DNA from: Nitrospinales bacterium
GTDB taxonomy: Bacteria; Nitrospinota; Nitrospinia; Nitrospinales; VA-1
Direction of reading: 5' to 3'
Length of the DNA: 64,000 bases
Assembly: GCA_047610985.1 (NCBI GenBank)
Contig: JBLFWU010000009.1
Span: 12,607 to 76,606 of the forward strand
Shown: positions 19,711 to 56,081 of the stretch, one piece after another
Position numbering within the stretch: the stretch's first letter is position 1
How the letters are laid out: each line of letters opens with the position of its first letter
Translations under genes and position numbers: made by a program
The notes under the pieces: generated by a model
Database searches by the model: none
Seen by the model: only the letters and a program-made list of their open reading frames with translations
What the model was told of the DNA's origin: nothing

Positions 19711-19842
19711 ACGCCGAATGTATCCTTATAATAGGATGTTTTTCAGCTAAGGTTGACACTTTAGCAAGGTATTGATAGATTGCAAAATTCAACTTTTAAA
19801 AACCAAATCAACCTTGAACCAACCAAAAATCTAAGCTTTCTT

Positions 19843-21201
19843 ATGCGTTTTATTTCGTTAGTATCACTGGTTTTATTCCTACTTGCTCCTGTTGCAGAAG
19901 CTTCTTCTCCTTCCATCGAAGCCAATCTTCATTACCAAAAAGCCATGAAGCTAAGCCAACAAAGGTTGTGGAAGGATGCTATCCCCGAATTTATTAAAGC
20001 CGCTAAACTAGCACCTAAAGACGGCTTACTGCATGCGAATCTTGGTGTCGCATTAAGTCAAACAGGGATGCACAAAGAAGCGCTATTTTCGTTCGACAAA
20101 GCATTAAAACTTGGATATGAATCATCCGGACTTCGTTACAACCGTGGAGTTTCTTTTGCACATCTGAATTTGATAGATGAAGCCGTGACAGAACTGGAAA
20201 AAGCCTTGAACCTTGACCGAAGAATGGTGAAAGCGGAATACGATCTTGGTGTTTTATACAACCGGCAAGGCAACAGGAAAAAGGCTCAGGAGAAAGTAGA
20301 CACTCTGTTTAAACGTAACAACAAGCTGGCAAAAAAATTATTTGACCAATTAATACCCGATTATAAAGTCATCACAGTCGATAATGGAGGAACACTAAAA
20401 GGCCGCGTTTCGCTGACGGGTCGCATCCCAAGAGCCCGTTCTTTTCATCTAGTGCATGCCCCGAACATTGAATTTTGTTCACGGATTTCAGATGGTAAAG
20501 GTCATCGTTTTCTGTACGATTTTACGGTATCGCTAAACCGAGGCTTGAAAGATACGATCATTTCCTTAACAGATATTAAAAAAGGAAAACCGTTTCCACA
20601 AAAAATGCAAACCTTTAATATAGACCGCTGTCGAGCCAATAACTACATCATTGGTATCAAGAACAGCGAAAACATCCTCATCGAAAATACCGATCCGATC
20701 CAGCACGAGATCGCAACCTATGAAGTGAGAAATATCTACTCCGATCAGACTTCAAATCGTCCTGTCATTCCAAAGTCTAGCCAGGTCAGGGCGGCATTCG
20801 TTCGTCACGATGCTAATGAATTCACTATCAAATGCAATCTTCACCCATTCCTGCAAACTCACGGATATCTGGTGGATAACCCCTATTATACCGTAACTGA
20901 CTCAGGTGGAAATTTTTCAATTGAAAACATCCCCCCTGGAACTTACGAGGTCGTGGCCTGGCACACTTATATTCCTCAAAAAAAAGGTACAATAACCATC
21001 ACCTCTAAAGGTGAAACAGAGATTAATTTTGAATTTAATGGTGCGGATGAGAGAAGAAAACTATACCACGATGATATTAAGGGTTATCGATTCAACACTT
21101 GGTATGACAGTAAAGAGAATTTTTATGGAGGCCCAAGAATTGACGATCCCGTGGAAGTATTGCAGGCCTTCTGCGACAAAGACCATATTTGTTCTGAATA
21201 A
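19843..21201 (+). CDS. secreted TPR protein fused to a cupredoxin-like/Ig-like module (paralog 1 of 3)
   Basis: Start set at MRFISLVSLVLFLLAPVAEA (signal peptide); the track ORF starts at 19780. TPR units at aa ~30-170. The C-terminal module shares conserved blocks with the ORFs at 44662 and 47752: GT(L/I)KG, xEFCS, IDRC, DPIQHE, CNLHPFL, NPYYTVTDSGGNFSIENIPPGTYEVVAWH. Confidence 0.65.
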   Translation: MRFISLVSLVLFLLAPVAEASSPSIEANLHYQKAMKLSQQRLWKDAIPEFIKAAKLAPKDGLLHANLGVALSQTGMHKEALFSFDKALKLGYESSGLRYNRGVSFAHLNLIDEAVTELEKALNLDRRMVKAEYDLGVLYNRQGNRKKAQEKVDTLFKRNNKLAKKLFDQLIPDYKVITVDNGGTLKGRVSLTGRIPRARSFHLVHAPNIEFCSRISDGKGHRFLYDFTVSLNRGLKDTIISLTDIKKGKPFPQKMQTFNIDRCRANNYIIGIKNSENILIENTDPIQHEIATYEVRNIYSDQTSNRPVIPKSSQVRAAFVRHDANEFTIKCNLHPFLQTHGYLVDNPYYTVTDSGGNFSIENIPPGTYEVVAWHTYIPQKKGTITITSKGETEINFEFNGADERRKLYHDDIKGYRFNTWYDSKENFYGGPRIDDPVEVLQAFCDKDHICSE

Positions 21202-43740: not shown

Positions 43741-44226
43741 TTAAAGCATCTTTTTCAAATACGGTACCAACTGGTCAGCGCTAACACCGGGTGCCCGGGC
43801 ACTGAGAATACCCTCTTTATCAATGATCAGCACTGTTGGCATTTCTCTTTGAAAATAGTTCTGATAAAAAGATTTAACGGGATCCAGCAAATAAGGAAAA
43901 CGGACCTTCTCAGGAAACTTGGAAAGATAATCAGCAACCGCTTCTTTTGAGTCACCATTGGTATTTATTCCAACAATAGCCAACTGCTCCTCATTGAGCT
44001 GATCACGCACCTTGTTAAATTCCATCGCTTGATTCATGCAGGGAACACAGATATGGAACATGCCTATCAATACTACTTTGCCCTTCATATCGGAGAGCGA
44101 TATCTGCTTGCCATCCAAGGTTTTTAATGAAAAATCCGGAGCCTTGTCGCCAGGGCCAGGAGCACCTGCAAATGCAAGTTCAGCCATAAATACCAATAAA
44201 AAGACTAGCGGCAATACTTTTCGCAT
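43741..44226 (-). CDS. periplasmic thioredoxin-like protein (TlpA/redoxin family)
   Basis: Start set at MRKVLPLVFLLVFMAELAFA (signal peptide); the track start is 44271. CxxC motif FHICVPCMNQ in a redoxin fold. Confidence 0.8.
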   Translation of the reverse strand: MRKVLPLVFLLVFMAELAFAGAPGPGDKAPDFSLKTLDGKQISLSDMKGKVVLIGMFHICVPCMNQAMEFNKVRDQLNEEQLAIVGINTNGDSKEAVADYLSKFPEKVRFPYLLDPVKSFYQNYFQREMPTVLIIDKEGILSARAPGVSADQLVPYLKKML

Positions 44227-44661
44227 TTTTAGCACGACAAACTCCAATTGAGGGAATATTTCAAGAAACAAAAAGGTCTAACAAAAGCTGGGTTTCATTT
44301 AATACTATATTTTAGATCAATGGGGAGAAATTTAAAAGTAATATGATTTTTGTATGGATAAACATACGAGCAATATTAACTTGTTAAAATTAAGATTCAA
44401 ATTCGAAAAACTAGCATTAATTTGTAGCCAAACTCATCCTTGACTTGGCCTTGAATTTATAATAAAAAAAGGAGTAACCCTTTTATTCTACAGGGGTTTT
44501 ACAAGAAAGCTCAGGCTGGATTTCTGTCTAGGGCCTTTTTCGGCAAAGACCTCCTAAGCCATTATTTTATGAAGGTTTAGGGTTATTCATGGATTGAAAG
44601 ACAAAATATATATATTTTTCAAATTGCTCCCCCAACGCGCTAACAATTGAGGCTCTTAAGA

Positions 44662-45510
44662 ATGAAAAAAAATCTATGGCTTGCCGCATCAGTATTTTCA
44701 ATATTTTCCATTGCAATAAATGCATGGGCTTATCAGGAAATAGAAGTAAATAACGGGGGAACAATAAAGGGCAAAACCACCTTAATTGGAAAGATGCCCT
44801 TTCCACGAATTTATCACCTTATTCTATTTCCGAATATTGATATGTGTGCCGAGGTAGATACCGATGATGAGATGAACCGAGTTCTTGATGATTTTAAAGT
44901 TTCTGCCGATGGCGGATTCAAAGATGTGGTTATCACTCTGAAACATGTAGAAGCTGGTAAGCCGTTTAATAAAGAGCCTATTATGATTACTTCGGAAAAC
45001 TGTAAATTTCTTCCTGATGTCAATATCATTCGTCAAGATGAGGAGTTTAAGGTCGACAATCTGGATGCAGTTATGCATAACAGTCAGGTCTACCAGAAAG
45101 AAAGAGGAAAGATTCTTTTAAATATCCCGATCCCTGCAGAAGAAGTTTCTAATGGTAAGATACACTTCAAAAAACACTATAAAATAATGCAGATGATCTG
45201 CGGTATGCACGAGTTCATGCAATCATGGGGTTACCGCGTACAAAATCCTTATTACGCGCAAACTCCCATTGACGGAAATTTCATCATAGAGAATATCCCT
45301 CCGGGAGAATATGAAGTGACGGCTTGGCATTATTTAATGAAAAGACAAACCCGAAAAATTATAGTCGCAACCGGGAAAACCATTGATTTGAACTTTGAAT
45401 TCGATGCCGACAAAGTAGTACGCCCTTTCTATGAAACTATAAAATCTGGAAGAATCAAAAAAGATGCTGTTATCCCTGGAACCGCAAAAGGTAAAGAAAT
45501 GGGGCGGTAA
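44662..45510 (+). CDS. secreted cupredoxin-like/Ig-like protein (paralog 2 of 3)
   Basis: Start at MKKNLWLAAS (GAGG 9 nt upstream); the track start is 44647. Signal peptide. Conserved blocks GTIKG, DMCAE, ENCKF, DAVMHNSQVY, ICGMHEFM (C-x2-H-x2-M), NPYYAQTPIDGNFIIENIPPGEYEVTAWH. Confidence 0.7.
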   Translation: MKKNLWLAASVFSIFSIAINAWAYQEIEVNNGGTIKGKTTLIGKMPFPRIYHLILFPNIDMCAEVDTDDEMNRVLDDFKVSADGGFKDVVITLKHVEAGKPFNKEPIMITSENCKFLPDVNIIRQDEEFKVDNLDAVMHNSQVYQKERGKILLNIPIPAEEVSNGKIHFKKHYKIMQMICGMHEFMQSWGYRVQNPYYAQTPIDGNFIIENIPPGEYEVTAWHYLMKRQTRKIIVATGKTIDLNFEFDADKVVRPFYETIKSGRIKKDAVIPGTAKGKEMGR

Positions 45511-47418
45511 TTGACAGCACAACCCAAATCTCGACTCCACTCTGGTTTGTATTTGCTTGTAGCCGTTTTCCTTCTGGCTACCCCGTATACAACTTGGGGT
45601 TTTTCTGCGCCGACCTCTAAAGACACACCAGAGGCCATCACCCTTGACAACAAAAAAGTCTTATTAAAAGACTTGAAGAACCCCCTCCCCTCCAGCCCAG
45701 AGATTGTCAAAGAAGGCGGAGAAATTTACATCAAAAACTGTTTCCTCTGCCACGGCGACCTATTGGATGGAAAAGGAATTTTTGGCGAGAGTTTTTTTCC
45801 CTCGCCAGCCAGCTTTATCCAAAAAGACTCTGTTGTTTCTAAAACTCCTGCTTATGCATTCTGGAGAATAATGAAAGGCGGGAAAGGACTACCAAAAATA
45901 TTCGCACCCTGGAACTCCGCGATGCCTTCATGGGAAGGTGTTTTAACTGAAGTAGAAGTTTGGAAAACGATTCACTACATAAACGAAACAGTAAAAGAGC
46001 GCAGCCAAGCTCCCTCAAAAAACCATGAGCCGTCTTTAAAACGTGGCAAACAAATCTATTTAAAAAAATGTGCCTTCTGCCACGGAGAAAAAGGCAAAGG
46101 CGATGGTCCCTCTGCAGAATACAGCTTGCCACAACCTAGGAACCTGACCAAAGGGCATATCAAGATTCGCTCAACCTCATTTGGCAAGATACCTACTGAC
46201 AAAGACCTGTTTAATGCCATCACTCATGGAATGCGCGGAACCACCATGCCCGGTTGGAAACATCTCTCGGAAAGCGATAGACAAAGTCTGGTTATCTACA
46301 TCAAGTCATTATCGAAAAAATTTGAGAAGTTCCAGAAGCGCGGCAAAAAACATAAGATCGTAAACGTCCCAAAACCTCCTACATTTTCTTTGGAAGGTGT
46401 GAAGCGCGGCAAAAAATCCTTTATGATAAATTGTTCAGGTTGTCATGGAGTTAAAGGCAGGGGCGATGGAGTTACCACCACTCGCATTGTAGACTATTCA
46501 TCGAATGCCATCTGGCCAAGAAACCTCAGTGAACCATGGAACTTTCGAAGAGGCGCAACTCGAGAAGATGTCTTCTTAACATTACGGACCGGGCTTTCAA
46601 CCACCGCAATGCCAAAGTTTTCTCCACGGGTGTTCAAAGACAAGGAAATCTGGGACATCGTAGATTTCATTTGTACTCTTGGCTCACCCAAGAAGCGGCA
46701 AGTAAAACCCGTGATCCTGGCTATGAAAGTCAACGGGCCTTTATCTATCGACCTCAATGCTTCATTTTGGAAAAAAACGCAATCATTTAACATCCCATTA
46801 GGTGGACAGATTTTACAAAAGCCAAAATCCTATTTTCCAACAGTAAAAAACTTGACGATTCGAGCCGCCTACAATGATAAAGAAATCGCTTTCAATATTA
46901 AGTGGGACGACCCTTCTTATGATCCCGCTCTTCTAGAAAGAAATAAGGTTGAGGCATCGCCGACGCCACCATTGCCGGATCATTTAAAGGGGGGAAAAGA
47001 GGAAAAAGCTATTGAACCTGTGATTCCAGAATTCCCAGATGCTTTTGCACTGCAGTTTCCCGTTAATCTGGACACTCAAAAACCCTACTTCCTAAATGGT
47101 GACCCTGAGCACCCAGTAAACTTATGGAAGTGGACTTCATCAGATAATAAAGTTCTTGAATGGAATGCTACCGGATTAAAAAAATGGTCGCTACAAGACG
47201 ACCTGAGTCAGGTAGTTAAGGCTCAAGCAAATTATAAGTTTGGTAGATACTCTTTAGTAGTAAAGCGCAAACGAAGGGTCATCCACGAAAAAATAGACAT
47301 CCAATTCCAAGCGGGAAAACCTATCCCTATTGCTTTCAATATCTGGGATGGTTACCAAGGTGAAACAGATACTAAAAAATCAATTTCAAGTTGGTTTGAA
47401 TTGCAATTCGCTGAGTAA
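45511..47418 (+). CDS. trihaem c-type cytochrome fused to a C-terminal EB_dh/DOMON-like (putative haem-b-binding) domain
   Basis: 635 aa. TTG start directly after the upstream TAA. Signal peptide. CFLCH (45739-45753), CAFCH (46069-46083), CSGCH (46432-46446). The C-terminal ~230 aa carry NLTIRAAYNDKEIAFNIKWDD, FPDAFALQFPV and VNLWKW blocks resembling the ethylbenzene-dehydrogenase gamma-subunit family. Confidence 0.75.
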   Translation: MTAQPKSRLHSGLYLLVAVFLLATPYTTWGFSAPTSKDTPEAITLDNKKVLLKDLKNPLPSSPEIVKEGGEIYIKNCFLCHGDLLDGKGIFGESFFPSPASFIQKDSVVSKTPAYAFWRIMKGGKGLPKIFAPWNSAMPSWEGVLTEVEVWKTIHYINETVKERSQAPSKNHEPSLKRGKQIYLKKCAFCHGEKGKGDGPSAEYSLPQPRNLTKGHIKIRSTSFGKIPTDKDLFNAITHGMRGTTMPGWKHLSESDRQSLVIYIKSLSKKFEKFQKRGKKHKIVNVPKPPTFSLEGVKRGKKSFMINCSGCHGVKGRGDGVTTTRIVDYSSNAIWPRNLSEPWNFRRGATREDVFLTLRTGLSTTAMPKFSPRVFKDKEIWDIVDFICTLGSPKKRQVKPVILAMKVNGPLSIDLNASFWKKTQSFNIPLGGQILQKPKSYFPTVKNLTIRAAYNDKEIAFNIKWDDPSYDPALLERNKVEASPTPPLPDHLKGGKEEKAIEPVIPEFPDAFALQFPVNLDTQKPYFLNGDPEHPVNLWKWTSSDNKVLEWNATGLKKWSLQDDLSQVVKAQANYKFGRYSLVVKRKRRVIHEKIDIQFQAGKPIPIAFNIWDGYQGETDTKKSISSWFELQFAE

Positions 47419-47696
47419 CAGATAATCTCACCCCAGCATCGACTTCTTATTACATCATCGCGCCATCAACTTGATGCCAGCGTAGTATTTTTAGGTTTGT
47501 ATTAAACGGGGCTATCAATACGTTCCATTTAATCCTTCAGCACGTCATCGTGAACGACCGGAGGGAGTGCGGCGAACCAGACGCAATCGTACTCCACTTT
47601 ATTTTTGGTAGAGGCAGACCCTAATTTGTTCTGAGATTGTCCGAACTCTATCCCTGAGGAGGGTAAATTTTAGGGATGGGGTCACCCGCATCAGGC

Positions 47697-47737
47697 AAAA
47701 AAAAAGCAGCACCGGAACCGAAGTTCCGGTGCTGCTT
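47697..47737 (-). terminator. rho-independent terminator of the cupredoxin-like gene at 47752-48558
   Basis: On the minus strand: GCAGCACCGGAAC-TTCG-GTTCCGGTGCTGC (13-bp perfect stem, UUCG loop) followed by T9. Confidence 0.9.
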
Positions 47738-47751
47738 GATTGAAACGCTTT

Positions 47752-48558
47752 TTACTTAGCTGCCAGGGTGAAGTCAGCTTTAGCTGCACCAGCAGCCACT
47801 GTTACTTCCTGGGTTGATTCACCTACATAAGGCTGCCATGCGGTAACTTTATATTTACCAGCAGGAACGCCGTCAATTGTGAAAGCACCATCAGCTCCCG
47901 TAATTGCGTAGTAAGGGTTCCAAACAATGCGTGCATCGGCTTCCATGAAGTTATGCTGATCGCACTGCAAAAAGAAATGCTTATCTTTGCTAGACTTTAG
48001 ACGACCGATATTTTTGGACACTTCCGCAACATCACCCTCATTTGGAAGAGGCTTGTTGAACAATGTTTTACGACTTGCACCAACAACGGAATACCCATGT
48101 GGGTTATGCAAAATATTTGCATCGTTATTCTTTACGGTAAGAACTCCACCCGATTTCTTTTCAGCCTTGGTAGGCTTGCGAATAACCAACATTTTCTGAA
48201 CAATGTCGCATTTCGTGAAATCGTAAGCAGCTTTACCAGCATCACCCCAAGGCTTGCCACCGTCAATCTTTTCGATAAATACGACTGCGTCTTTCAGCTT
48301 GCCGCCAGCAGCTGACACTTTTACACGAGGGCGGATTCCATCTTTAGCATCCGGATGCGTGGTGCAGAACTCAACGTTCTTACCTTTTGATAAATCTTCC
48401 ATGATCGGAGCCATCGCAGCACCCTTTAACATGACTGTTCCAGTAATGCTACCCGCACCTGCTGTGCCTTCTGCATAACCTTTTTTCTTGGCGAAACTCG
48501 TAGAAGCTAGTGCCAATGAAAAGGCAACAACCATTACACTAAATACAATCTTTCTCAT
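47752..48558 (-). CDS. secreted cupredoxin-like/Ig-like protein (paralog 3 of 3)
   Basis: 268 aa with a signal peptide (LALASTSFA). AGGAGG RBS. Blocks SITGT, VEFCTT, FTKCD, ANILHNPHGY, LQCDQHNFM (C-x2-H-x2-M), NPYYAITGADGAFTIDGVPAGKYKVTAWQ. It has its own terminator. Confidence 0.75.
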   Translation of the reverse strand: MRKIVFSVMVVAFSLALASTSFAKKKGYAEGTAGAGSITGTVMLKGAAMAPIMEDLSKGKNVEFCTTHPDAKDGIRPRVKVSAAGGKLKDAVVFIEKIDGGKPWGDAGKAAYDFTKCDIVQKMLVIRKPTKAEKKSGGVLTVKNNDANILHNPHGYSVVGASRKTLFNKPLPNEGDVAEVSKNIGRLKSSKDKHFFLQCDQHNFMEADARIVWNPYYAITGADGAFTIDGVPAGKYKVTAWQPYVGESTQEVTVAAGAAKADFTLAAK

Positions 48559-48754: not shown

Positions 48755-51700
48755 TTATCTCATCGAGAGCCGGTCATCCTCAGCTTTTGAGGCAGATTTC
48801 TCTTCCTCAGAAGGCTGAGATGCAGTTTTCACACCCTTTGGTGTAACCTTGCCAAGCGGCAGGATAGAACGGTCACCTGAAGATAGAACCTTAAAGTAAC
48901 CCCACTGACCCGCTTGTTGATAAGGTGTACGAGCGTTAAACCACAAGTACGTACCAGGGTTCTTGTACGTGCCGCCAGCATTGAAGAAGGCTTGAATGTA
49001 CTCGCCTGCTCCAAATTGCTCGGTGTCAATCATATCAGAGCCTTCCTGATCCATATGACGCCTCCACTGATGGCCATCCAAATTGAACATCTGGTTTTGT
49101 TCGTTATGAGCACCAAAAATATTGATCATAACCCTATCTCCTGCATGGGCTTTCAGAGTCGGTGTTGCAGGATCTTGATCTGCAGCAACACAAGCTGTGA
49201 ACATGTTACCAAGTTCACAACCCTCGTCTTCCCGATAGAGCCAAGGCTCCAGGCGATAGTTAACCCCTGTCAGGCCCGCTACGTTTTGCAGGTAAGGCAT
49301 GAAAGATGTACCAATGATATTGTCTTCATCCTGGAAATACAGTGCAAAATCCCTGTAGTTCTCAATGTTAGCGTTTTCAGGATAAGACTTGTCGATGATA
49401 ACGTCCGCTTTCCAAGAATTACCGAGAGAAATATCTTTCCCGGTTTCAGGATCGCGATACACCGAACCACGTGGGCCGATGATGATACCACCGAACATAC
49501 CATCGCGTAAGTTGGTCGTCAGGTTACCAAAGTCCCAAATCAATGAACCATTGATTTTGAAACCTGGATCTGCGTAGAACTCGTAGTTCTTCGATTTACC
49601 CGGAGCCACCGTCTGGTCGCCTGGGTTATTCCCAACGTTGATACCCTGAGAAGTCAGAGGATCAAACGCAATGTTGTTAAGATGCATTGAAGCATTGCCC
49701 GCTTTCAAGCGATTGGTCAATTTGATTTTGATACAATCGCCAATGTTGGCGTGCAAGGTCAACGGATGCGGCATATGCCCATCTGCTGCGGCTTGCTTGG
49801 CTTCACCTTCGAGAGCATAGATTTTGCCCGCTGCATTAGCGAGTAATAACTTACGCTCAAAGTCGACCTCGATTTCACCTTCGGTATTGGCGTTGAAGTT
49901 CAACTCTTTATCAATCGCTACAACACTGAAGCTTTTAACCGGTGAGCCTTTCGGACAAAGAACTTTCTTAACTTTTTTCTTAAATTCTTCATTACCCGGA
50001 AGCACTTTCAGGTCTTTTTGCAATTCATCGTGTACACGGATGATGCCCCACTCTCCTTCTGACAACTTTGAAGTTCTGCCGTCGTAGTAGAGATAGTCAC
50101 CTGCCATGCCCTGATAACCACCAGCAGTGGTTGCCAAGTCATAACGTTCCGCAATACCAATATGAATCGTATTGGTAACACGTGAATCTTTGTCGTAACG
50201 CTCAGGGCGGTAGCCATGACCGGATACAACAAAGGTGTGTGTTTCATTTTGCATACCATGAAGGAGACGGAAAACAATATTGTCTCCTACATAAGCACGT
50301 AACATTGGTGTTGCAGGCTCTCCGTGCACTTTACTATCGAACAACCTGGACGCGTCTTTATTATTCAAAAGACGTGAAGCCAAGGAAGCAGCACGGAAGT
50401 TGAACCCACCGCCGGTTGTATGCGTTCCGCCATTGAGATGCGGGAAAGCAACTTCCAGCATATCCGAAGGCATCTGGAAAGAAATCGACTGACCGGCAGC
50501 AATCGCGTTTTCACGTGTCAGCCCCGCTGGATTTCCTGCTGTAACCAGCTGTGCCGTATGAGGAACAGTGTCATGTAACTGCGCAACAAGTTCGCGGAAG
50601 CTACCATTTCGGCTATATGCGAAAGGTTCGGTTCCATGAATATCGGCAACTGGACCACTGCGGATCTCCTCACCGGTTTGCGGGTCATGATAAGTAGAAC
50701 CCCAAGGCTCAACAATAGTAGATCCGATTCCGCCATGCGGCCAGGTGGTCGCACCAAACGCATGATCGTGCCAGAAAACCAATCCAACATCTGCATCTAC
50801 CCACCATCGGTAACGCACATACTCGGTGGTTATAATCTGGTTAGCTGCATGAGCATGAGTCATACCCTCACTAAAGGTGATGGTGTACTTACCATCTTTA
50901 GCTTCACCTTTGTTTGGGTCAGGTGTGATGTTAGTGATCCAGCGCGCGTCTTTACCGTTAGGAACTTCGACACCAACAATGATATCAGCTCCAACATGGT
51001 AAGTCGGCGAACCTTTAGCCATTTGAAGCTCGACCTTCGTGTCGCCTGGCTTCGTCGCCTTCAACAACTTGGCGTTCATCGGCATCGGCATACTGACATG
51101 ATGACCGTCTTTCATCTTCTTAGTGAACTGCGTGTAAGACCTCATGGACTGGTCATATGAGAAACCAGTGATAACTCCATCTGAAGCCTGATTGTCGAAC
51201 TGGAAGAAATGCGGATGGATATTCACCTTAGACATTTGGAAGTTGGTGAAATCATCATCATCCCACTCACTGGTCAACAACACATCAACACAGTCATAAA
51301 CGTTGGCACGAATGACCAGAGGAATAGCCCTTTTAGGATCAGCTTTAACCTCAGCCATCTCTTCATCGATCACATAGATCAAGCCATACTTATCCACTAC
51401 AGGTGGCGTCTTGCCCACCGCCGGTGAAAGCTCAATCGGAGTGTTGATAAAATGTAGATTGTATTGTTTACGTCCTGCTCCTGGAGGACAAAGGCTCCAT
51501 CGCCCCTGCTCACCTGGTTTTGCAGGTGCACTGCTTTCAACATTGATTCCAGATCGACCACTACCAGATTCGGAACCTGTAATGATGTCTGCATCCGGTC
51601 TCATATGGAAAGGCTCCAACCAAGGAGCTCCACCATGGTGTCGAGCAAATGGAACACGCTTACCAAAATGCGGATTCAAATGCGGCCATGCAAGTTTACC

Positions 51701-53704
51701 GTGTTGATCAAACATGATCGGATGTCTCTTGCCTGGATGTGGAGATTTATACTTAGGCCATTCAATTATAGATTCTCGTTCAGAGAGTACCTGATTGCCT
51801 TTCCAGTCGTAATCCCATACAGAGCCATCATAGGCCTTAATCTGTTTGATTGGATCATCATAATGACCAGGCTGTCCCTTTGGAGGAAGCATGTACTTAA
51901 CCCAGTCTTTGATGTTAACGGTTGGATCCTCTTTCGACCAATCGCTTTTACCTTTATCAACAATATGAAACTTCTTGCCAAACCAGTCCATGGTTCTACC
52001 AACCAGTTTGTCTGAAGTTTGTCCATGAGGAATGCGTCCCACACGATCAGGAAGCTCCTTCAATGGACGCATAACATCGGTACTACCTGTTGGATAATTA
52101 CCGTCCTGTAGAACGTTATAAACTCTCCAATATCCCCACATGCCTGCAACATAGTGATGCGCTACATGACAATGGAAAAGAAAGTCACCTGCTAAACGCT
52201 GACAAAGACCAGACCCACATTCAGTCTCGAGATCCACAACTTCAGATGGACCAATAACTTTAACGTCAACACGGTCGGTCGTAGTACGAACAACAGGGTA
52301 CTTGACGGGACCATCATAAGCCGCACTGATGAGGTTGGCGATTTGCACTTCCCGTTTCGGGGAACGCGTCCAACGAATGGTTCCACCATGTGGATGATGT
52401 GAATGAAACACTTCACCACCACCATGAATCAAACGGAATTTTGCAGGATCACCCAGATAAGAACGGGGAATCGTGGTCGGTGCATCTCCGAAAGTATAAG
52501 AACTATATGCCAGTGACTCATCTTCAAAATGAAACTTCTTTTCCTGAATTGCCAGATTGTTGATACCAAATGGTTCAGAACGAAAGTTCAATGCTCTTGC
52601 AGAAGGACGATAAGCGTCTGTCTGCGGATCGCGCTGAGGAATCATTTCACCATGACGATTCAAGGGACGAAAAGATTCGTCACCGACTTCGTGATAAATC
52701 AAACCAAATTCACGAAAATCTCTTTCATCATCATTAACGATCATGGCCATCCAGCCGCTTTCCAGCGGGCCACCGGTCCATGGATCGACATAACGAGAAC
52801 CTTTAGGCTCTACAACCATCGCGCCGATCAAACCGAGAGAAGAAGGATCACGACCTGCATGGTTTTGAATCATGTGTCCGCCTTCTTGCTCATCAATAGG
52901 AATGTACCACTCGTATTCCTGCGTTTCACCAGCAGGAACTATTGCACCAGGTGTAGCAGCCGTATCAGGCTGACCTGTAGAGCTGATGATCATTGCAGAA
53001 CCGTTTACCTGAAAGCCTGCATCTTCATCTTCTAATTGGTTCGTGAATTTAATACGTAAGCAGTCGCCTTGATTCGCACGAATCATAAACGGTTGAATAG
53101 CATCTCCCTGAAGTCCGTTAGAAACGGCACCAGGGTCCAACGCGTCTTCACGAGCTGCTGCATTCTTTTCTTCTTCAGCTCGAACTTTATCAATGTCCTT
53201 ATCCAGAACATACATATAGCCCGGATAGTAATCGCCCCATTGGTTCAGGGTGATTTCGACGTTAATAGCTGAGACTTCGTAGGTTTTTGTAGAGGCGTTG
53301 CTCGGACAATGTGCACCTCTGTATACCTTGGCCGCAGCTTCTGTCGGTCCAAGCAAATAACTTTGACCTAATTGATGTCCCGCCCAGGAATCGTGGAATC
53401 CGCCGCCTGAAGATGCGGGACTCGCGTGTTCCTTAAGCTTTGATTTTAACTGATCCATAACCTTCATAAAGGTTTGGTCCAGTTTTTCTTGGCTACCTTC
53501 CAGCCCACTCATAACATCTTCATGCTCGAGTTGCTGATCAAGTTTTTTCAGCCAATTGGGTCTGTCAACTGCTGCGTTGCCAGAGTCATGACCGTCATGC
53601 GAATGGTCGGTCGAAATTGCACTAGCGGGAACAGAAAGTCCCAGGGTCAAAAAAACGACCGCAAGCGCATACAAGCTTTTCCACCCTTTTTTGACACGAA
53701 TCAT
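48755..53704 (-). CDS. giant secreted multicopper oxidase, six cupredoxin-like domains
   Basis: 1649 aa, AGGAGG RBS, Sec signal peptide (…SVPASA), His-rich mature N-terminus STDHSHDGHD. Type-1/trinuclear signature FHCHVAHHYVAGM (aa 510-522, nt 52139-52177) preceded by FHSHHPHG (aa 433-440). NIHPHF (aa 828-833) and FWHDHA (aa 977-982) lie downstream. Internal repeats include IRANQGDCLRIKFTN / LHANIGDCIKIKLTN and LHGMQNETHTFVVSGHGYR / FGAHNEQNQMFNLDGHQWR. Confidence 0.85.
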   Translation of the reverse strand: MIRVKKGWKSLYALAVVFLTLGLSVPASAISTDHSHDGHDSGNAAVDRPNWLKKLDQQLEHEDVMSGLEGSQEKLDQTFMKVMDQLKSKLKEHASPASSGGGFHDSWAGHQLGQSYLLGPTEAAAKVYRGAHCPSNASTKTYEVSAINVEITLNQWGDYYPGYMYVLDKDIDKVRAEEEKNAAAREDALDPGAVSNGLQGDAIQPFMIRANQGDCLRIKFTNQLEDEDAGFQVNGSAMIISSTGQPDTAATPGAIVPAGETQEYEWYIPIDEQEGGHMIQNHAGRDPSSLGLIGAMVVEPKGSRYVDPWTGGPLESGWMAMIVNDDERDFREFGLIYHEVGDESFRPLNRHGEMIPQRDPQTDAYRPSARALNFRSEPFGINNLAIQEKKFHFEDESLAYSSYTFGDAPTTIPRSYLGDPAKFRLIHGGGEVFHSHHPHGGTIRWTRSPKREVQIANLISAAYDGPVKYPVVRTTTDRVDVKVIGPSEVVDLETECGSGLCQRLAGDFLFHCHVAHHYVAGMWGYWRVYNVLQDGNYPTGSTDVMRPLKELPDRVGRIPHGQTSDKLVGRTMDWFGKKFHIVDKGKSDWSKEDPTVNIKDWVKYMLPPKGQPGHYDDPIKQIKAYDGSVWDYDWKGNQVLSERESIIEWPKYKSPHPGKRHPIMFDQHGKLAWPHLNPHFGKRVPFARHHGGAPWLEPFHMRPDADIITGSESGSGRSGINVESSAPAKPGEQGRWSLCPPGAGRKQYNLHFINTPIELSPAVGKTPPVVDKYGLIYVIDEEMAEVKADPKRAIPLVIRANVYDCVDVLLTSEWDDDDFTNFQMSKVNIHPHFFQFDNQASDGVITGFSYDQSMRSYTQFTKKMKDGHHVSMPMPMNAKLLKATKPGDTKVELQMAKGSPTYHVGADIIVGVEVPNGKDARWITNITPDPNKGEAKDGKYTITFSEGMTHAHAANQIITTEYVRYRWWVDADVGLVFWHDHAFGATTWPHGGIGSTIVEPWGSTYHDPQTGEEIRSGPVADIHGTEPFAYSRNGSFRELVAQLHDTVPHTAQLVTAGNPAGLTRENAIAAGQSISFQMPSDMLEVAFPHLNGGTHTTGGGFNFRAASLASRLLNNKDASRLFDSKVHGEPATPMLRAYVGDNIVFRLLHGMQNETHTFVVSGHGYRPERYDKDSRVTNTIHIGIAERYDLATTAGGYQGMAGDYLYYDGRTSKLSEGEWGIIRVHDELQKDLKVLPGNEEFKKKVKKVLCPKGSPVKSFSVVAIDKELNFNANTEGEIEVDFERKLLLANAAGKIYALEGEAKQAAADGHMPHPLTLHANIGDCIKIKLTNRLKAGNASMHLNNIAFDPLTSQGINVGNNPGDQTVAPGKSKNYEFYADPGFKINGSLIWDFGNLTTNLRDGMFGGIIIGPRGSVYRDPETGKDISLGNSWKADVIIDKSYPENANIENYRDFALYFQDEDNIIGTSFMPYLQNVAGLTGVNYRLEPWLYREDEGCELGNMFTACVAADQDPATPTLKAHAGDRVMINIFGAHNEQNQMFNLDGHQWRRHMDQEGSDMIDTEQFGAGEYIQAFFNAGGTYKNPGTYLWFNARTPYQQAGQWGYFKVLSSGDRSILPLGKVTPKGVKTASQPSEEEKSASKAEDDRLSMR

Positions 53705-53919: not shown

Positions 53920-55224
53920 TTAATTTTCCCTTACAAGCCCCAAGTTGATTTTTTTATCGTCCCTCAAAACCAGTAGAAAAACAGAGCCACCTTTAGTCAC
54001 CCCGCTCAAAATACTCTCGAATTCATGTTGATTTTTCACCGTTTCTCCATTGACCGCCAAAATCTGGTCACCAACTTGTACGCCTTTTATTTCGGCATAA
54101 CTTCCTAGCTTTACAGTAGCTACTTTTGGGTTATTTTCAGCAAGAGGATCATCTGTTACCGAAAAGCCCAAAGATGAGGGGTCGCTGGGAGTCAAAGAGG
54201 CCAAAAGGCTGGTTTTCTTTTTCTTCGATTCAAGTTTCACAGGAACTGTCTTACCTTTGCCGTTTCTCAGAATATCCAGGTTAATGGTTTGTCCAGGAGT
54301 GATTGTGCCAATAATGCGGATCAGGGTATTGGGTGAGTCAACAACTGCGCCTCCAATTTTCAAAATAATATCCCCCACTTTCAATCCCGCTTGATGAGCC
54401 GGATCGCCTTCAAAAACAGAAGTGACGACAACGCCTTTCTTACTACCTTTTATTTCAGTCATCTCTTCGGGTAGCGGATCAATACCCACACCCAGCCAAC
54501 CGCGGTGCACTTCTCCGTGCTCCACCAATTGAGCAACAATATGCGAAACCATATTTGATGGGATGGAAAAACCAATGCTTTGCGCATAATTGATGATAGC
54601 GGTATTGATACCAATAACTTCACCTTTGATATTCAGTAACGGACCACCGCTATTCCCAGGGTTGATCGAAGCATCGGTTTGGATGAAATCTTCATATCGA
54701 GAGAGGTTGACGTTCTCTCTTTTTAATCCACTGACAATTCCAAAGGTTGTCGTATCGTTCAGCCCATAAGGATTGCCCACCGCCACTACCAATTGCCCTA
54801 TTCTGACCTTACTGGAATCTGCAAACTTTACCGCCGTCAGCGGCTGCGCGGATTCGACTTGCACCACAGCGAGATCAGTATCTTCATCAGCACCTAAAAC
54901 TTCACCGACAATCTTACTACCATCTTTAAATGTCACCAGTATCTTCAGGACATTACGCACTACATGGCTGTTAGTAACGATCAATCCTTTTTTTGCATTG
55001 AAGATAACACCCGCTCCTGCATTTGCAGGTCGACCTTTCCTAGGTAACCCCTGCCCCACAGCGCCTTTTGCAATATAGGGAGAAAGACTGACCACTGCCG
55101 GCCGAACTTTATCCGCCAACGCCACAAGCTCCTGCTCAACCTGCTCCAAAATTCCCGCACTGCTGGATTGCGCCAGTAGCAGGAAAATTATAATTGCGCA
55201 GACTTTTATAAGCGGATTGTTCAT
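53920..55224 (-). CDS. htrA: periplasmic serine endoprotease HtrA/DegP/DegQ family, two PDZ domains
   Basis: 434 aa with a signal peptide. Catalytic triad context TNSHVV, DLAVV, GNSGGPLL, followed by two PDZ segments. Confidence 0.92.
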   Translation of the reverse strand: MNNPLIKVCAIIIFLLLAQSSSAGILEQVEQELVALADKVRPAVVSLSPYIAKGAVGQGLPRKGRPANAGAGVIFNAKKGLIVTNSHVVRNVLKILVTFKDGSKIVGEVLGADEDTDLAVVQVESAQPLTAVKFADSSKVRIGQLVVAVGNPYGLNDTTTFGIVSGLKRENVNLSRYEDFIQTDASINPGNSGGPLLNIKGEVIGINTAIINYAQSIGFSIPSNMVSHIVAQLVEHGEVHRGWLGVGIDPLPEEMTEIKGSKKGVVVTSVFEGDPAHQAGLKVGDIILKIGGAVVDSPNTLIRIIGTITPGQTINLDILRNGKGKTVPVKLESKKKKTSLLASLTPSDPSSLGFSVTDDPLAENNPKVATVKLGSYAEIKGVQVGDQILAVNGETVKNQHEFESILSGVTKGGSVFLLVLRDDKKINLGLVREN

Positions 55225-55370: not shown

Positions 55371-56081
55371 ATGACTATATCCTCTAAAGACCTCGAAACC
55401 AAATCGGCAGAAGAACTGATCCAATGGGCTATGGACGAATATGGCTTGAAAGCCGGCCTCGCTTGCAGTTTTGGTATGGAAGACATGGTTCTCATAGATA
55501 TGATCGCCAAACTCAAAGGCCCGATCACCATCTTCACTCTCGATACAGGTCGTCTGCATGAGGAAACCTACGAAATAATGGAACGTGTGAGGTCGCATTA
55601 CGGACTGGAAATCAAAACCTATTTCCCGGACTGCAAAAAGGTAGAAAAACTAGTGCGAGGAAAAGGCTTCTTTTCCTTTAAAGAGAGTATTGAGAATCGG
55701 AAAGAGTGCTGCGCGATTAGAAAGATTGAACCTTTAAATCGTGCACTAGCCGAACTCGATGCCTGGGTCACGGGGTTAAGAAGAGACCAAGCGGTTACTC
55801 GCACCGAGACGCCAAAGGTTATAGAGGATTCCGATCACCCGCCTCTTATAAAAATAAACCCTCTCGCAGACTGGTCGCAAGAGCAGGTAGAGTCTTATAT
55901 CGAAAAACATAAAGTTCCTGTCAATGCTTTACATAAAAAGAATTATCCCAGTATAGGCTGTGCTCCCTGTACCCGCTCTATCGAGCCAGGCGAAGATATT
56001 CGTGCTGGAAGATGGTGGTGGGAAAACCCCGAACATAAAGAGTGCGGCCTTCACCGTGGGCCAACAGCTGGGGGCAACTAG
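55371..56081 (+). CDS. cysH: assimilatory adenylyl-sulfate (APS)/PAPS reductase, Fe-S type
   Basis: 236 aa. PP-loop-like region, KECCAIRK plus GCAPCT (the CC...CxxC cluster typical of APS-specific enzymes), and the C-terminal ECGLH motif. Confidence 0.88.
   Translation: MTISSKDLETKSAEELIQWAMDEYGLKAGLACSFGMEDMVLIDMIAKLKGPITIFTLDTGRLHEETYEIMERVRSHYGLEIKTYFPDCKKVEKLVRGKGFFSFKESIENRKECCAIRKIEPLNRALAELDAWVTGLRRDQAVTRTETPKVIEDSDHPPLIKINPLADWSQEQVESYIEKHKVPVNALHKKNYPSIGCAPCTRSIEPGEDIRAGRWWWENPEHKECGLHRGPTAGGN

Follow-up and report, generated by a model that had tools for sequence, protein, structure and literature searches.

The trihaem cytochrome c–EB_dh fusion gene analysed here lies in a 64,000-nucleotide stretch of DNA (the window) from a Nitrospinaceae nitrite oxidiser, and the protein it encodes has been known since 2013 as "alternative NxrC4" (Lücker et al., PMC3578206). 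It is ordinary in marine Nitrospina genomes, and the 2013 annotation rules out a categorically new fusion. Our best explanation, to which we assign a probability of about 0.7, is that the protein is the Nitrospinales-wide orthologue of alt_NxrC4 and that it would serve in the periplasm, together with a cupredoxin, as a soluble electron carrier of high potential.

Nitrospinaceae make much of the nitrate in the ocean. Several of their genera have no terminal oxidase that has been recognised (PMC13768755), and the alt_NxrC proteins are standing candidates for the missing link by which electrons leave the periplasmic NXR. The fusion adds no new kind of protein, but it provides constraints that are useful for purification: the genetic coupling of the alt_NxrC4 paralogue is with a blue copper protein rather than with nxr, a haem b of the canonical Met/Lys type is impossible in it, and its membrane-bound relatives accompany cytochrome bd-like oxidases also outside nitrite oxidisers.

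Domain composition of the fusion protein

The sequence-only reading had proposed a fusion of three c-type haem motifs to an EB_dh/DOMON-like domain, and profile and fold comparisons bear this out. All six strings that it quoted are present in the protein: CFLCHGDLLDGKG (aa 77-89), CAFCHGEKGKGDG (aa 187-199) and CSGCHGVKGRGDG (aa 308-320), followed by NLTIRAAYNDKEIAFNIKWDD (aa 447-467), FPDAFALQFPV (aa 508-518) and VNLWKW (aa 536-541). Three stretches match Cytochrome_CBB3 (Pfam PF13442; E 2.4e-33, 114.7 bits), Cytochrom_C (Pfam) also matches (E 2.7e-28), and EB_dh (PF09459) matches over profile positions 1-236 with an E-value of 5.5e-21 and 76.1 bits, against a cut-off of 33.3. These matches are far beyond chance. 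Each of the three cytochrome domains combines a CxxCH motif, a distal Met and a profile match, as class I c-type cytochromes do, and the haem-c ligands (C77/C80/H81/M138, C187/C190/H191/M246 and C308/C311/H312/M367) are all invariant in the alignment, proteobacterial relatives included.

The EB_dh domain contains a family-specific insertion with an invariant S-P-x-P-P-L-P (aa 483-489). Comparison of an AlphaFold2 model of the fusion (pLDDT 78.9) by Foldseek points to the EbdC/NxrC-type beta-sandwich fold for this domain: the model matches EbdC (2ivf_C; E 9e-14, TM 0.80 on target) and Kuenenia NxrC (7b04 chain O; E 2.5e-11), as well as the Kuenenia dihaem cytochrome Kustc0457 (6h5l_B; E 2e-13, TM 0.82). 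With the profile of type II DMSO-reductase gamma subunits, TIGR03477, the fusion scores 107 bits, below the cut-off of 169.85, and with the EbdC equivalog NF042980 it scores 36.8 against a cut-off of 400. A Kyte-Doolittle scan found no transmembrane segment in the fusion, and because there is no hydrophobic segment beyond the putative signal peptide, we read the protein as soluble and periplasmic. It is very basic, with a pI of about 9.6 and a net charge of +32. The coordinates of the features discussed here are collected in Table 1.

Table 1. Features of the trihaem cytochrome c–EB_dh locus (window coordinates)
Feature	Position	Strand	Details
TlpA/ResA-type thioredoxin-like protein	43741..44271	-	Pfam AhpC-TSA E 4.5e-20, Redoxin E 6.4e-19
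cup287, secreted type-1 copper cupredoxin domain then CarboxypepD_reg-like beta-sandwich (predicted)	44647..45510	+	Operon gene 1
Trihaem cytochrome c–EB_dh fusion gene	45511..47418	+	635 aa, TTG start
Putative Sec signal peptide	45511..45603	+	aa 1-31, MTAQPKSRLHSGLYLLVAVFLLATPYTTWG/F; read from sequence, cleavage site inferred
Cytochrome c domain 1	45688..46005	+	CxxCH aa 77-81, distal Met138; Pfam
Cytochrome c domains 2 + 3	46036..46680	+	CxxCH aa 187-191 and 308-312; distal Met246 and Met367
EB_dh/DOMON domain	46759..47382	+	aa 417-624; PF09459, EbdC fold match
Asn529, at haem-b Met-ligand position	47095..47097	+	EbdC Met108, Kuenenia NxrC Met155; HMMER alignments
Lys623, at haem-b Lys-ligand position	47377..47379	+	EbdC Lys201, Kuenenia NxrC Lys305; HMMER alignments
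Intrinsic terminator of the convergent MCO-cupredoxin transcript	47704..47737	-	15-bp stem then seven T
cup268, second cupredoxin paralogue, downstream of MCO	47752..48558	-	Loop CDQHNFM; Pfam, alignment
MnxG-like multicopper oxidase (MCO)	48755..53704	-	1649 aa; Cu-oxidase_3 (Pfam), MnxG (NCBIfam) E 7.6e-32 but far under its cut-off

Distribution and orthology

The fusion has 628 homologues at E <= 0.001. Among the 120 of these that were listed, every one has the cytochrome c domains, and the EB_dh domain is missing only from a partial record of 390 aa; those listed with a source name come from Nitrospina, Nitrospinaceae or Nitromaritima. Full-length orthologues sharing 46-91% identity occur across four families (f1-f4), and the fusion is found in nearly every genome of the order, a distribution that the MnxG-like MCO shares. 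For N. gracilis, Table S1 of PMC3578206 gives alt_nxrC4 (NITGRv1_620040) as a gene for a 642-aa protein with three haem c and an EB_dh domain; its locus tag is three away from that of the MCO gene and five away from that of cysH (PMC3578206). The gene order around the fusion is the same, and the neighbouring MCO is orthologous to NITGRv1_620037 of the same table. Judged by its architecture, length and synteny and by the Nitrospina-wide series of homologues, the fusion is the orthologue of alt_NxrC4 of Nitrospina gracilis 3/211, and it has the traits of that group: three haem c plus EB_dh in about 640 aa, predicted solubility, and a position in the vicinity of MCO and cysH.

The distant proteobacterial relatives carry a membrane anchor, and their operons also encode a cytochrome bd-like oxidase and an AioAB/IdrAB-like enzyme. 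In a tree, the EB_dh domains fall into three clades, namely a Met/Lys clade (NxrC, C3, C74 and C75), the Nitrospinota trihaem proteins and the proteobacterial proteins, whose branching order is unresolved. Together with a cluster on contig C64 of the genome itself, these operons place alt_NxrC1, the membrane-anchored haem-c/EB_dh protein found with cytochrome bd-like oxidases, as a paralogue of the soluble fusion.

The cupredoxin gene upstream and other neighbours

The TAA stop codon of cup287 (45508-45510) directly abuts the TTG start of the fusion gene, no terminator was found between the two genes, and cup287 lies directly 5' of the fusion in every locus whose contig includes the upstream flank, with the exception of two (L062 and L065). 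We regard the two genes as a predicted two-gene operon, cup287 then fusion. A promoter scan of the locus gave no more promoter-like sites than shuffled sequence.

That the abutting upstream gene is cupredoxin-like had been suggested from the sequence, and this identification was confirmed. The putative copper ligands H144/C185/H188/M191, with the C-x2-H-x2-M arrangement of amicyanin, are invariant in 18 cupredoxin members of 22-79% identity, and Foldseek matches the AlphaFold2 model of cup287 (pLDDT 83.7) to amicyanin, the type-1 copper domain of NirK and plastocyanin (E 1e-5 to 1e-3). With the His, Cys, His and Met ligands and the fold of a type-1 cupredoxin, cup287 is predicted to bind copper. 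The distant relatives in proteobacteria likewise have members of this cupredoxin family in their operons.

The thioredoxin-like gene on the other side of cup287 is divergent from the cupredoxin-cytochrome operon, a position that it keeps in nearly all Nitrospinota loci, and its product is likely a maturation helper. Downstream, the fusion gene faces the convergent MCO unit, which includes cup268; this second cupredoxin shares about 29% identity and the invariant ligands with cup287. The sequence-only reading had noted this convergence, which is present here, but in related loci the linkage is frequent rather than obligatory. The MCO is a frequent neighbour of the fusion gene and a candidate functional partner.

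The haem-b ligand positions of the EB_dh domain

A check of the EB_dh domain for conserved Met and Lys ligands of haem b had been proposed, and only the second was found. Our assignment of these positions is based on sequence and profile alignments, with the axial ligand numbering of EbdC and Kuenenia NxrC taken from PMC8387239. Lys623 is invariant in one alignment and is replaced by Met in four of about 65 Nitrospinota loci (L057, L063, L065 and L074). [quoted passage not shown] The genome encodes five EB_dh paralogues detectable with PF09459, the fusion included, and the other four have kept the Met ligand. Because this Met is replaced by Asn, a canonical haem b is not assured in the fusion. 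The EB_dh region has a single Met, which is not conserved. We also considered His491 and His534 as substitute distal ligands and rejected both because these positions vary: two members have Ser or Glu in place of H491, and several have Arg, Asn or Trp in place of H534.

It is possible, though we hold it only tentatively, that the EB_dh domain is haem-free, in which case the fusion would be a trihaem cytochrome c with a non-redox DOMON-type docking or ligand-binding domain. Besides the lost Met, for which the domain has no conserved His or Met elsewhere as a substitute, this view draws on relatives that lack a plausible ligand at either position (L/Q in Rhodobacteraceae, R/T and F/R in one locus each). 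Moreover, of the 150 cluster representatives (50% identity) nearest to the EB_dh domain, only 11 have Met/Lys and many have F/R, L/R or G/R, so that haem loss seems to be common in cytochrome-fused EB_dh domains. The DOMON superfamily also includes sugar-binding CBM9 modules, which are seen among the Foldseek matches. Several observations argue in the opposite direction. Firstly, Lys623 is replaced only by Met, which is also a haem ligand, in the four Nitrospinota loci. Secondly, the basic residue aligned with Arg113 of EbdC and a Lys of NxrC is kept, mostly as H534, and presumably contacts a haem propionate. Thirdly, the proteobacterial relatives have His at both ligand positions, a coupled His/His pair. 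The position of Lys623 behaves like that of a haem ligand: most Nitrospinota have K there, four have M, and proteobacteria have H. On balance, we lean somewhat towards the view that the EB_dh domain binds haem b; if it does, the coordination would differ from that in EbdC and NxrC.

Proposed role in electron transfer

The data are best accommodated by the view that the fusion is an electron carrier working with the cupredoxin. The Sec-exported, soluble and basic fusion would reside in the periplasm of the nitrite oxidiser, where cup287 and the fusion most likely form a redox pair. This pair would be a high-potential electron-transfer module that links a donor in the periplasm, NXR being the most plausible one, to copper or oxidase acceptors. 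The earlier idea of a wire from a periplasmic donor to the copper proteins is plausible in outline. The cofactor content, the partners and the direction of electron flow are what we infer from the sequences and models.

An alternative is that the fusion is the dedicated redox partner of the MnxG-like MCO, the cupredoxins and the cytochrome either feeding the MCO, which would then be a periplasmic O2-reducing oxidase, or draining electrons from its substrate. Both genes are distributed over families f1-f4 and absent from the other orders of the class, the two are found together in about 47 high-quality genomes (tally of our tables), the genes are convergent neighbours in most long loci, and there is one cupredoxin paralogue per unit. 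The charges of the cytochrome (+32) and the MCO (-46) are complementary as well, which is weak evidence. However, the shared distribution may reflect shared ancestry, and the association is not strict: in three loci (L026, L062 and L074) the adjacency is disrupted or not seen within 10 kb, other loci have up to about 8 kb inserted, the MCO is missing from one genome with the cytochrome (G039), and the cytochrome is missing from one genome with the MCO (G017). In addition, proteobacterial relatives of the cytochrome and cupredoxin occur without any MCO, and MCOs normally draw electrons directly from their own substrates. We consider such a dedicated partnership unlikely.

Slightly less probable still is that the fusion is an alternative gamma subunit of NXR, as proposed by Lücker et al. 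in 2013, with its EB_dh domain docking on NxrB in the place of NxrC and its c haems carrying the electrons of nitrite onward. The EB_dh domain is homologous to NxrC and EbdC, the fusion is found in nitrite oxidisers, for which this role has been proposed (PMC3578206, PMC8026999), and it is present in all single-contig genomes with NxrA. The genomic context, on the other hand, speaks against such a subunit. A PF00384 profile search of the genome gave four matches, on contigs C2, C19, C7 and C6, and none on C9, the contig of the window; the absence of a molybdoenzyme from the neighbourhood, stated in the sequence-only reading, thus extends to the whole contig, and the fusion gene is not accompanied by genes for Mo-bisPGD alpha and Fe-S beta subunits. 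An enzyme of the type II DMSO-reductase family does exist elsewhere in the genome in the form of NxrABC, encoded on C6, but there nxrAB is directly followed by its own NxrC with a Met/Lys-type motif, the Met of which is absent in the fusion. Linkage to nxr genes was found in none of 80 related loci, the linkage being to the cupredoxin instead, and the proteobacterial relatives adjoin an AioAB/IdrAB-like enzyme, not NXR. Furthermore, one genome (G001) has NxrA (61% identity) without a trihaem orthologue, two others (G017 and G101) likewise have NxrA and lack the orthologue, and an NxrA-sized Mo enzyme is missing from three genomes that have the orthologue (G052, G090 and G091, the last of which is a chromosome in one contig). 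It should be noted that NxrA was detected in 55 of 120 genomes, and that metagenome-assembled genomes often lack nxr genes, which are known to be missed in binning (PMC13768755), so absences of NxrA are weak evidence.

Finally, we regard as very improbable a Lys-ligated haem b in the invariant Asn/Lys pocket with an open or weakly occupied sixth site, which would make the module a periplasmic catalytic or ligand-binding oxidoreductase, perhaps working with the MnxG-like oxidase, with O2, H2O2, NO or nitrite as examples of candidate substrates.

Comparison with known systems

The closest known counterpart of the fusion is alt_NxrC4 of N. gracilis. The two proteins have similar lengths (635 and 642 aa), are both predicted to be periplasmic and soluble, and share the MCO/cysH neighbourhood; there is no substantive difference between them, the window gene coming from another Nitrospinaceae genus.

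With the EbdC/NxrC gamma subunits the fusion shares the EB_dh fold, PF09459, the position of the Lys ligand and the basic residue before the PVNxW strand. It differs from them in the three attached cytochrome c domains, in the Asn that replaces Met, in the SPxPPLP insertion of about 25 aa, in a score that stays below the TIGR03477 cut-off, and in not being encoded with Mo-bisPGD alpha and beta subunits.

Cytochrome c domains and an EB_dh-like domain are also the building blocks of alt_NxrC1 and alt_NxrC_2, which in Nitrospina, Nitrospira and anammox bacteria are the membrane modules of gene clusters for cytochrome bd-like oxidases (PMC3578206, PMC6606698, PMC8026999). Unlike these proteins, which have a membrane anchor and whose genes lie next to a bd-like oxidase, the fusion is unanchored and its gene adjoins that of a cupredoxin. 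The genome analysed here has its own alt_NxrC1-type copy on contig C64, split into ORFs of 324 and 588 aa with 27-48% identity to the fusion.

The cupredoxin cup287 resembles amicyanin and other small blue copper proteins in its C-x2-H-x2-M loop, the upstream His and the cupredoxin fold. Unlike amicyanin, it has about 260 aa in its mature form, with an extra N-terminal strand region and a C-terminal CarboxypepD_reg-like sandwich, and its lineage has a conserved basic tail that amicyanin lacks.

The second half of the cytochrome part has its nearest structural counterpart in a dihaem electron-transfer module, Kustc0457 (6h5l_B), which matches aa 177-395 of the fusion in sequence with an E-value of 1.1e-38, and in fold with a TM of 0.82 at 34% identity. 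Kustc0457 is a stand-alone protein of 226 aa and the partner of the octahaem HAO-like Kustc0458, whereas in the fusion the dihaem module is part of a four-domain protein.

Architecture and fold of the trihaem fusion

The sequence-only reading had described a fusion of three c-type haem motifs to an EB_dh/DOMON-like domain with no molybdoenzyme nearby, and this observation is confirmed. All the motifs quoted are present in the ORF, and profile searches recovered both the three cytochrome c domains (PF13442, E 2.4e-33 in three stretches; PF00034, E 2.7e-28) and a full-length EB_dh domain (PF09459) at residues 417-624 (E 5.5e-21; 76.1 bits against a gathering score of 33.3). In sequence comparisons, residues 177-395 resemble the Kuenenia dihaem cytochrome Kustc0457 (6h5l_B, E 1.1e-38), and the C-terminal domain resembles EbdC (2ivf_C) and Kuenenia NxrC (7b04_C). 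The same trio heads the Foldseek matches of an AlphaFold2 model made from 24 input sequences (pLDDT 78.9), with TM scores of 0.80 to EbdC and 0.82 to Kustc0457; next come CBM9 modules and the cytochrome domains of cellobiose dehydrogenases, that is, the DOMON superfamily. The N-terminus is signal-peptide-like, and a hydrophobicity scan found no further hydrophobic segment. Finally, the window's contig, C9, holds no molybdopterin enzyme; the four PF00384 matches of the genome lie on contigs C2, C19, C7 and C6. The overall interpretation of the fusion, as a wire between a periplasmic donor and copper proteins, is supported in part.

Features of the trihaem locus, of the same genome and of related loci
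Feature	Location	Strand	Remark
cup287, partner gene upstream of the cytochrome	44647-45510	+
Trihaem EB_dh cytochrome	45511-47418	+	635 aa, TTG start; EB_dh paralogue of the window
cup268, cupredoxin-like gene	47752-48558	-
MCO, giant MnxG-like multicopper oxidase	48755-53704	-
HtrA	53920-55224
cysH	55371-56081
EB_dh paralogue	C6		NxrC
EB_dh paralogue	C3		stand-alone, 269 aa
EB_dh paralogues, two	C74 and C75		dihaem fusions
Short cupredoxin paralogue	L040:8313-9026; L050:8368-9066; L056:8330-9034; L059:8328-9074
Proteobacterial operon, 1			cytochrome bd-like oxidase subunit I
Proteobacterial operon, 2			cytochrome c
Proteobacterial operon, 3			membrane-anchored trihaem EB_dh protein
Proteobacterial operon, 4			two MauG/CCP-like dihaem peroxidases
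Proteobacterial operon, 5			AioB-like Rieske subunit; TIGR02694, 116.9 bits vs cut-off 95.65
Proteobacterial operon, 6			AioA-like Mo subunit; TIGR02693, 408.5 vs 359

Five EB_dh paralogues were found with PF09459 in the genome (3.05 Mb, 131 contigs, 92% complete). A more divergent relative, split into two ORFs, lies on contig C64, where it follows a cytochrome bd-like oxidase and a dihaem cytochrome; the cluster (C64:10005-15741) is the one known from the literature as 'alt_NxrC1 / bd-like oxidase'. The 324-aa ORF of the relative comprises a membrane domain and cytochrome c domain 1 (48% identical to residues 66-156 of the window protein), and its 588-aa ORF has two CxxCH motifs, an EB_dh-like domain that PF09459 did not detect and a C-terminal helix (27% identity). 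The ligand positions of this copy are Phe and Met.

Haem b ligand positions

The ligands of the haem b of EbdC are Met108 and Lys201, a numbering that agrees with the residue count in our alignments. In Kuenenia NxrC they are Met155 and Lys305, 'as in EBDH' (PMC8387239). Only half of this pair was recovered in the trihaem protein: the Lys corresponds to Lys623 in alignments of single sequences and of profiles, but Asn529 stands at the position of the Met. This Asn is invariant, reading FLNG in every Nitrospinota locus readable there, down to 46% overall identity, and the single Met in the EB_dh region is not conserved; the four other EB_dh paralogues of the genome retain Met at this position. 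Lys623 is invariant in our alignment of trihaem orthologues (A1), and in four Nitrospinota loci (L057, L063, L065 and L074; K/R-M-[TSA]-[VI]-SSWF), in which Asn529 is unchanged, it is replaced by Met. As this is a swap between two haem-ligating residues, it can be argued that the position still ligates haem. The proteobacterial relatives have His at both positions, except for Rhodobacteraceae (Leu/Gln). Because the Lys623 position varies between Lys, Met and His, as a haem ligand would, it appears probable from the alignments that the EB_dh domain of the fusion binds a haem b, with non-canonical coordination.

We also surveyed the best 150 of 766 EB_dh clusters at 50% identity (E <= 0.001; representatives P0121-P0270), most of which have two CxxCH motifs. 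In this alignment, whose register was checked on the query and the His/His group only, the Met/Lys pair occurs in 11 of the 150, and many pairs (F/R, L/R, G/R) are unable to ligate haem. Since Met/Lys is rare and non-ligating pairs are many, haem loss seems to be common in cytochrome-fused EB_dh domains. The axial positions are extremely variable among these 150, where M/R, L/M, M/M, M/C, M/H, H/H and N/K are also found.

The cupredoxin partner

The upstream gene, cup287, had been read as cupredoxin-like and as translationally abutted to the cytochrome gene, and both statements proved correct. Its TAA stop is followed immediately by the TTG start of the cytochrome gene, a G-rich stretch lies just upstream of this start, and a terminator scan found no terminator between the two genes. 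Pfam detected only a C-terminal CarboxypepD_reg-like domain in cup287. In an alignment of 18 family members (22-79% identity), comprising the window's two copies, Nitrospinota orthologues and members from Alpha- and Gammaproteobacteria and Nitrospirota, the copper ligands H144, C185, H188 and M191 are invariant, with an amicyanin-like C-x2-H-x2-M loop, as are C119, D140, N145 and N159. Furthermore, the AF2 model of cup287 (pLDDT 83.7) matches the type-1 copper domain of NirK, amicyanin, plastocyanin and CuA domains.

In the Nitrospinota loci covered, a cup287 orthologue lies directly upstream of the cytochrome gene whenever the contig includes the upstream flank, with two exceptions: L062 has no cupredoxin copy within 10 kb of the cytochrome, and the sole cupredoxin match in L065 is the paralogue that accompanies the MCO downstream. 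Nearly all of these loci also have a divergently transcribed gene for a TlpA-like thioredoxin. Residues 253-287 of cup287 (45403-45510) form a conserved basic C-terminal tail with the pattern RPFYETIKSGRIKKDAV.PGTAKGKE.GR, modelled with low confidence; it is confined to the cup287 lineage, being absent from cup268 and the proteobacterial copies, and is possibly a peptide by which cup287 docks on the cytochrome.

The family has further members. A third cupredoxin/CarboxypepD_reg protein of the window (19780-21201, plus strand, 473 aa), in which these domains are fused to a TPR region at the N-terminus, is 35% identical to cup287 over residues 29-269. In several other Nitrospinota, the cup287 orthologue is itself directly preceded by a gene for a short cupredoxin of about 230 aa (loop CDLH[SDH]WM), so that the operon has three genes; the window lacks this gene at the corresponding place. 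A small separate contig of the genome (C123:675-1493) carries a second cup268-like gene, 64% identical, with a gene for a monohaem cytochrome c after it.

Association with the multicopper oxidase

The convergence of the cytochrome gene on the MCO unit, noted for the window, was borne out in relatives: in most long loci an MCO (75-98% identity), accompanied by a cupredoxin paralogue of its own, faces the cytochrome, sometimes with inserted genes of up to about 8 kb in between. No MCO was found within 10 kb of the cytochrome in L026, L062 and L074. In the window, the convergent genes are separated by 333 nt (47419-47751), in which the only clear signal is a strong minus-strand terminator (47737-47704); the terminator scan of this gap found no comparable plus-strand terminator after the cytochrome gene.

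Among 120 Nitrospinota species genomes, with the orthologue counted at full length and 46-91% identity, cytochrome and MCO are each present in nearly all genomes of the four families of the window's order, and in none of the class's other orders, which have dihaem relatives or none. The exceptions among high-quality genomes are G101 (neither), G039 (cytochrome only) and G017 (MCO only). Such co-occurrence would fit a functional link, but it can be accounted for just as well by common descent. The net charges of the mature cytochrome (+32, pI 9.6) and the MCO (-46) are at most a weak hint of docking. A second giant MCO copy (84% identity) is encoded elsewhere in the genome (C48:16462-21471), and many Nitrospinales genomes have two copies, often in tandem.

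Possible roles: electron carrier or subunit of nitrite oxidoreductase

[quoted passage not shown] In addition, the fusion has lost the Met ligand. Distributions also disagree: G001, from another order, has NxrA (61% identity) without trihaem protein or MCO, and G017 and G101 have NxrA without the trihaem orthologue; conversely, G091 (single-contig chromosome CP070799, locus L062), G090 and G052 have the orthologue and no NxrA-sized Mo enzyme. NxrA was detected in 55 of the 120 genomes and nxr genes are known to be hard to bin (PMC13768755), so such absences are weak evidence; these three Nitrospinaceae could represent a lineage that does not oxidise nitrite, or the absence could be due to an assembly gap. 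The MCO of G091 is cut down to a 321-aa fragment, and no cupredoxin lies beside the cytochrome in this genome. Based on the mismatched distributions, the separate NxrC and the lost Met, we rank this alternative below the more general reading of a periplasmic electron carrier paired with a cupredoxin.

As such a carrier, the protein would be exported by Sec and, after haem attachment, would hold an intramolecular chain of three c haems with His/Met ligation, possibly joined by one haem b with a Lys ligand, on which the co-translated type-1 copper protein would dock to exchange electrons. NXR would be the obvious upstream donor in this organism, the nitrite/nitrate potential being about +420 to +430 mV (PMC3578206, PMC8387239), and the MCO, the bd-like oxidase complex and other oxidases are candidate acceptors.

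Distant relatives and comparison with known systems

Marine Hyphomicrobiales, Anderseniella, Rhodobacteraceae, Gammaproteobacteria and a Nitrospirota MAG encode full-length relatives with 30-34% identity. These combine three CxxCH motifs and an EB_dh domain with three helices at the N-terminus and one transmembrane helix at the C-terminus. Every proteobacterial locus that is long enough shows the same six-part gene order, exemplified by an Anderseniella MAG (L081:7020-20818) and repeated in L084, L086, L088, L090, L092 and L093. In alphaproteobacterial loci, genes for a HEAT-repeat protein and a cup287-family cupredoxin lie downstream of the operon; in gammaproteobacterial ones they lie upstream of it, on the other strand. 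The wider family thus travels with a molybdoenzyme of the arsenite-oxidase/iodate-reductase family, always together with a bd-like oxidase. This speaks for a general role of haem-c/EB_dh proteins in connecting high-potential enzymes of the periplasm to bd-like membrane complexes. The Nitrospinales protein would be a soluble derivative in which the cupredoxin partner has been retained.

The proteobacterial operon resembles iodate reductase clusters (idrABP1P2), here coupled to a bd-like oxidase module; one published Idr account describes the genes around idr as poorly conserved and does not mention such coupling. Named homologues of the Nitrospinales protein, among the matches listed, are all from Nitrospina, Nitrospinaceae, Nitrospinota or Ca. 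Nitromaritima; 119 of 120 share its domain set, the exception being a partial record, and some already bear the names 'Triheme cytochrome c' or 'DMSO reductase family type II enzyme heme b subunit'. In the genome paper of N. gracilis (Lücker et al., PMC3578206), alt_NxrC4 is listed, three locus tags from a 1634-aa multicopper oxidase (NITGRv1_620037) and five from APS reductase (NITGRv1_620035), and the window has the same gene order: cysH, HtrA, MCO, cupredoxin-like gene, cytochrome. Homologues of all N. gracilis NxrC candidates were reported in two further Nitrospinae (Mueller et al. 2020, PMC8026999). The trihaem EB_dh fusion is therefore a protein type already annotated and discussed, known as alt_NxrC4, to which our analysis adds the replacement of Met by an invariant Asn, a nearly obligatory pairing with a cupredoxin, a distribution shared with the MCO at the level of the order, and proteobacterial operons that include both a bd-like oxidase and an Aio/Idr-like enzyme.
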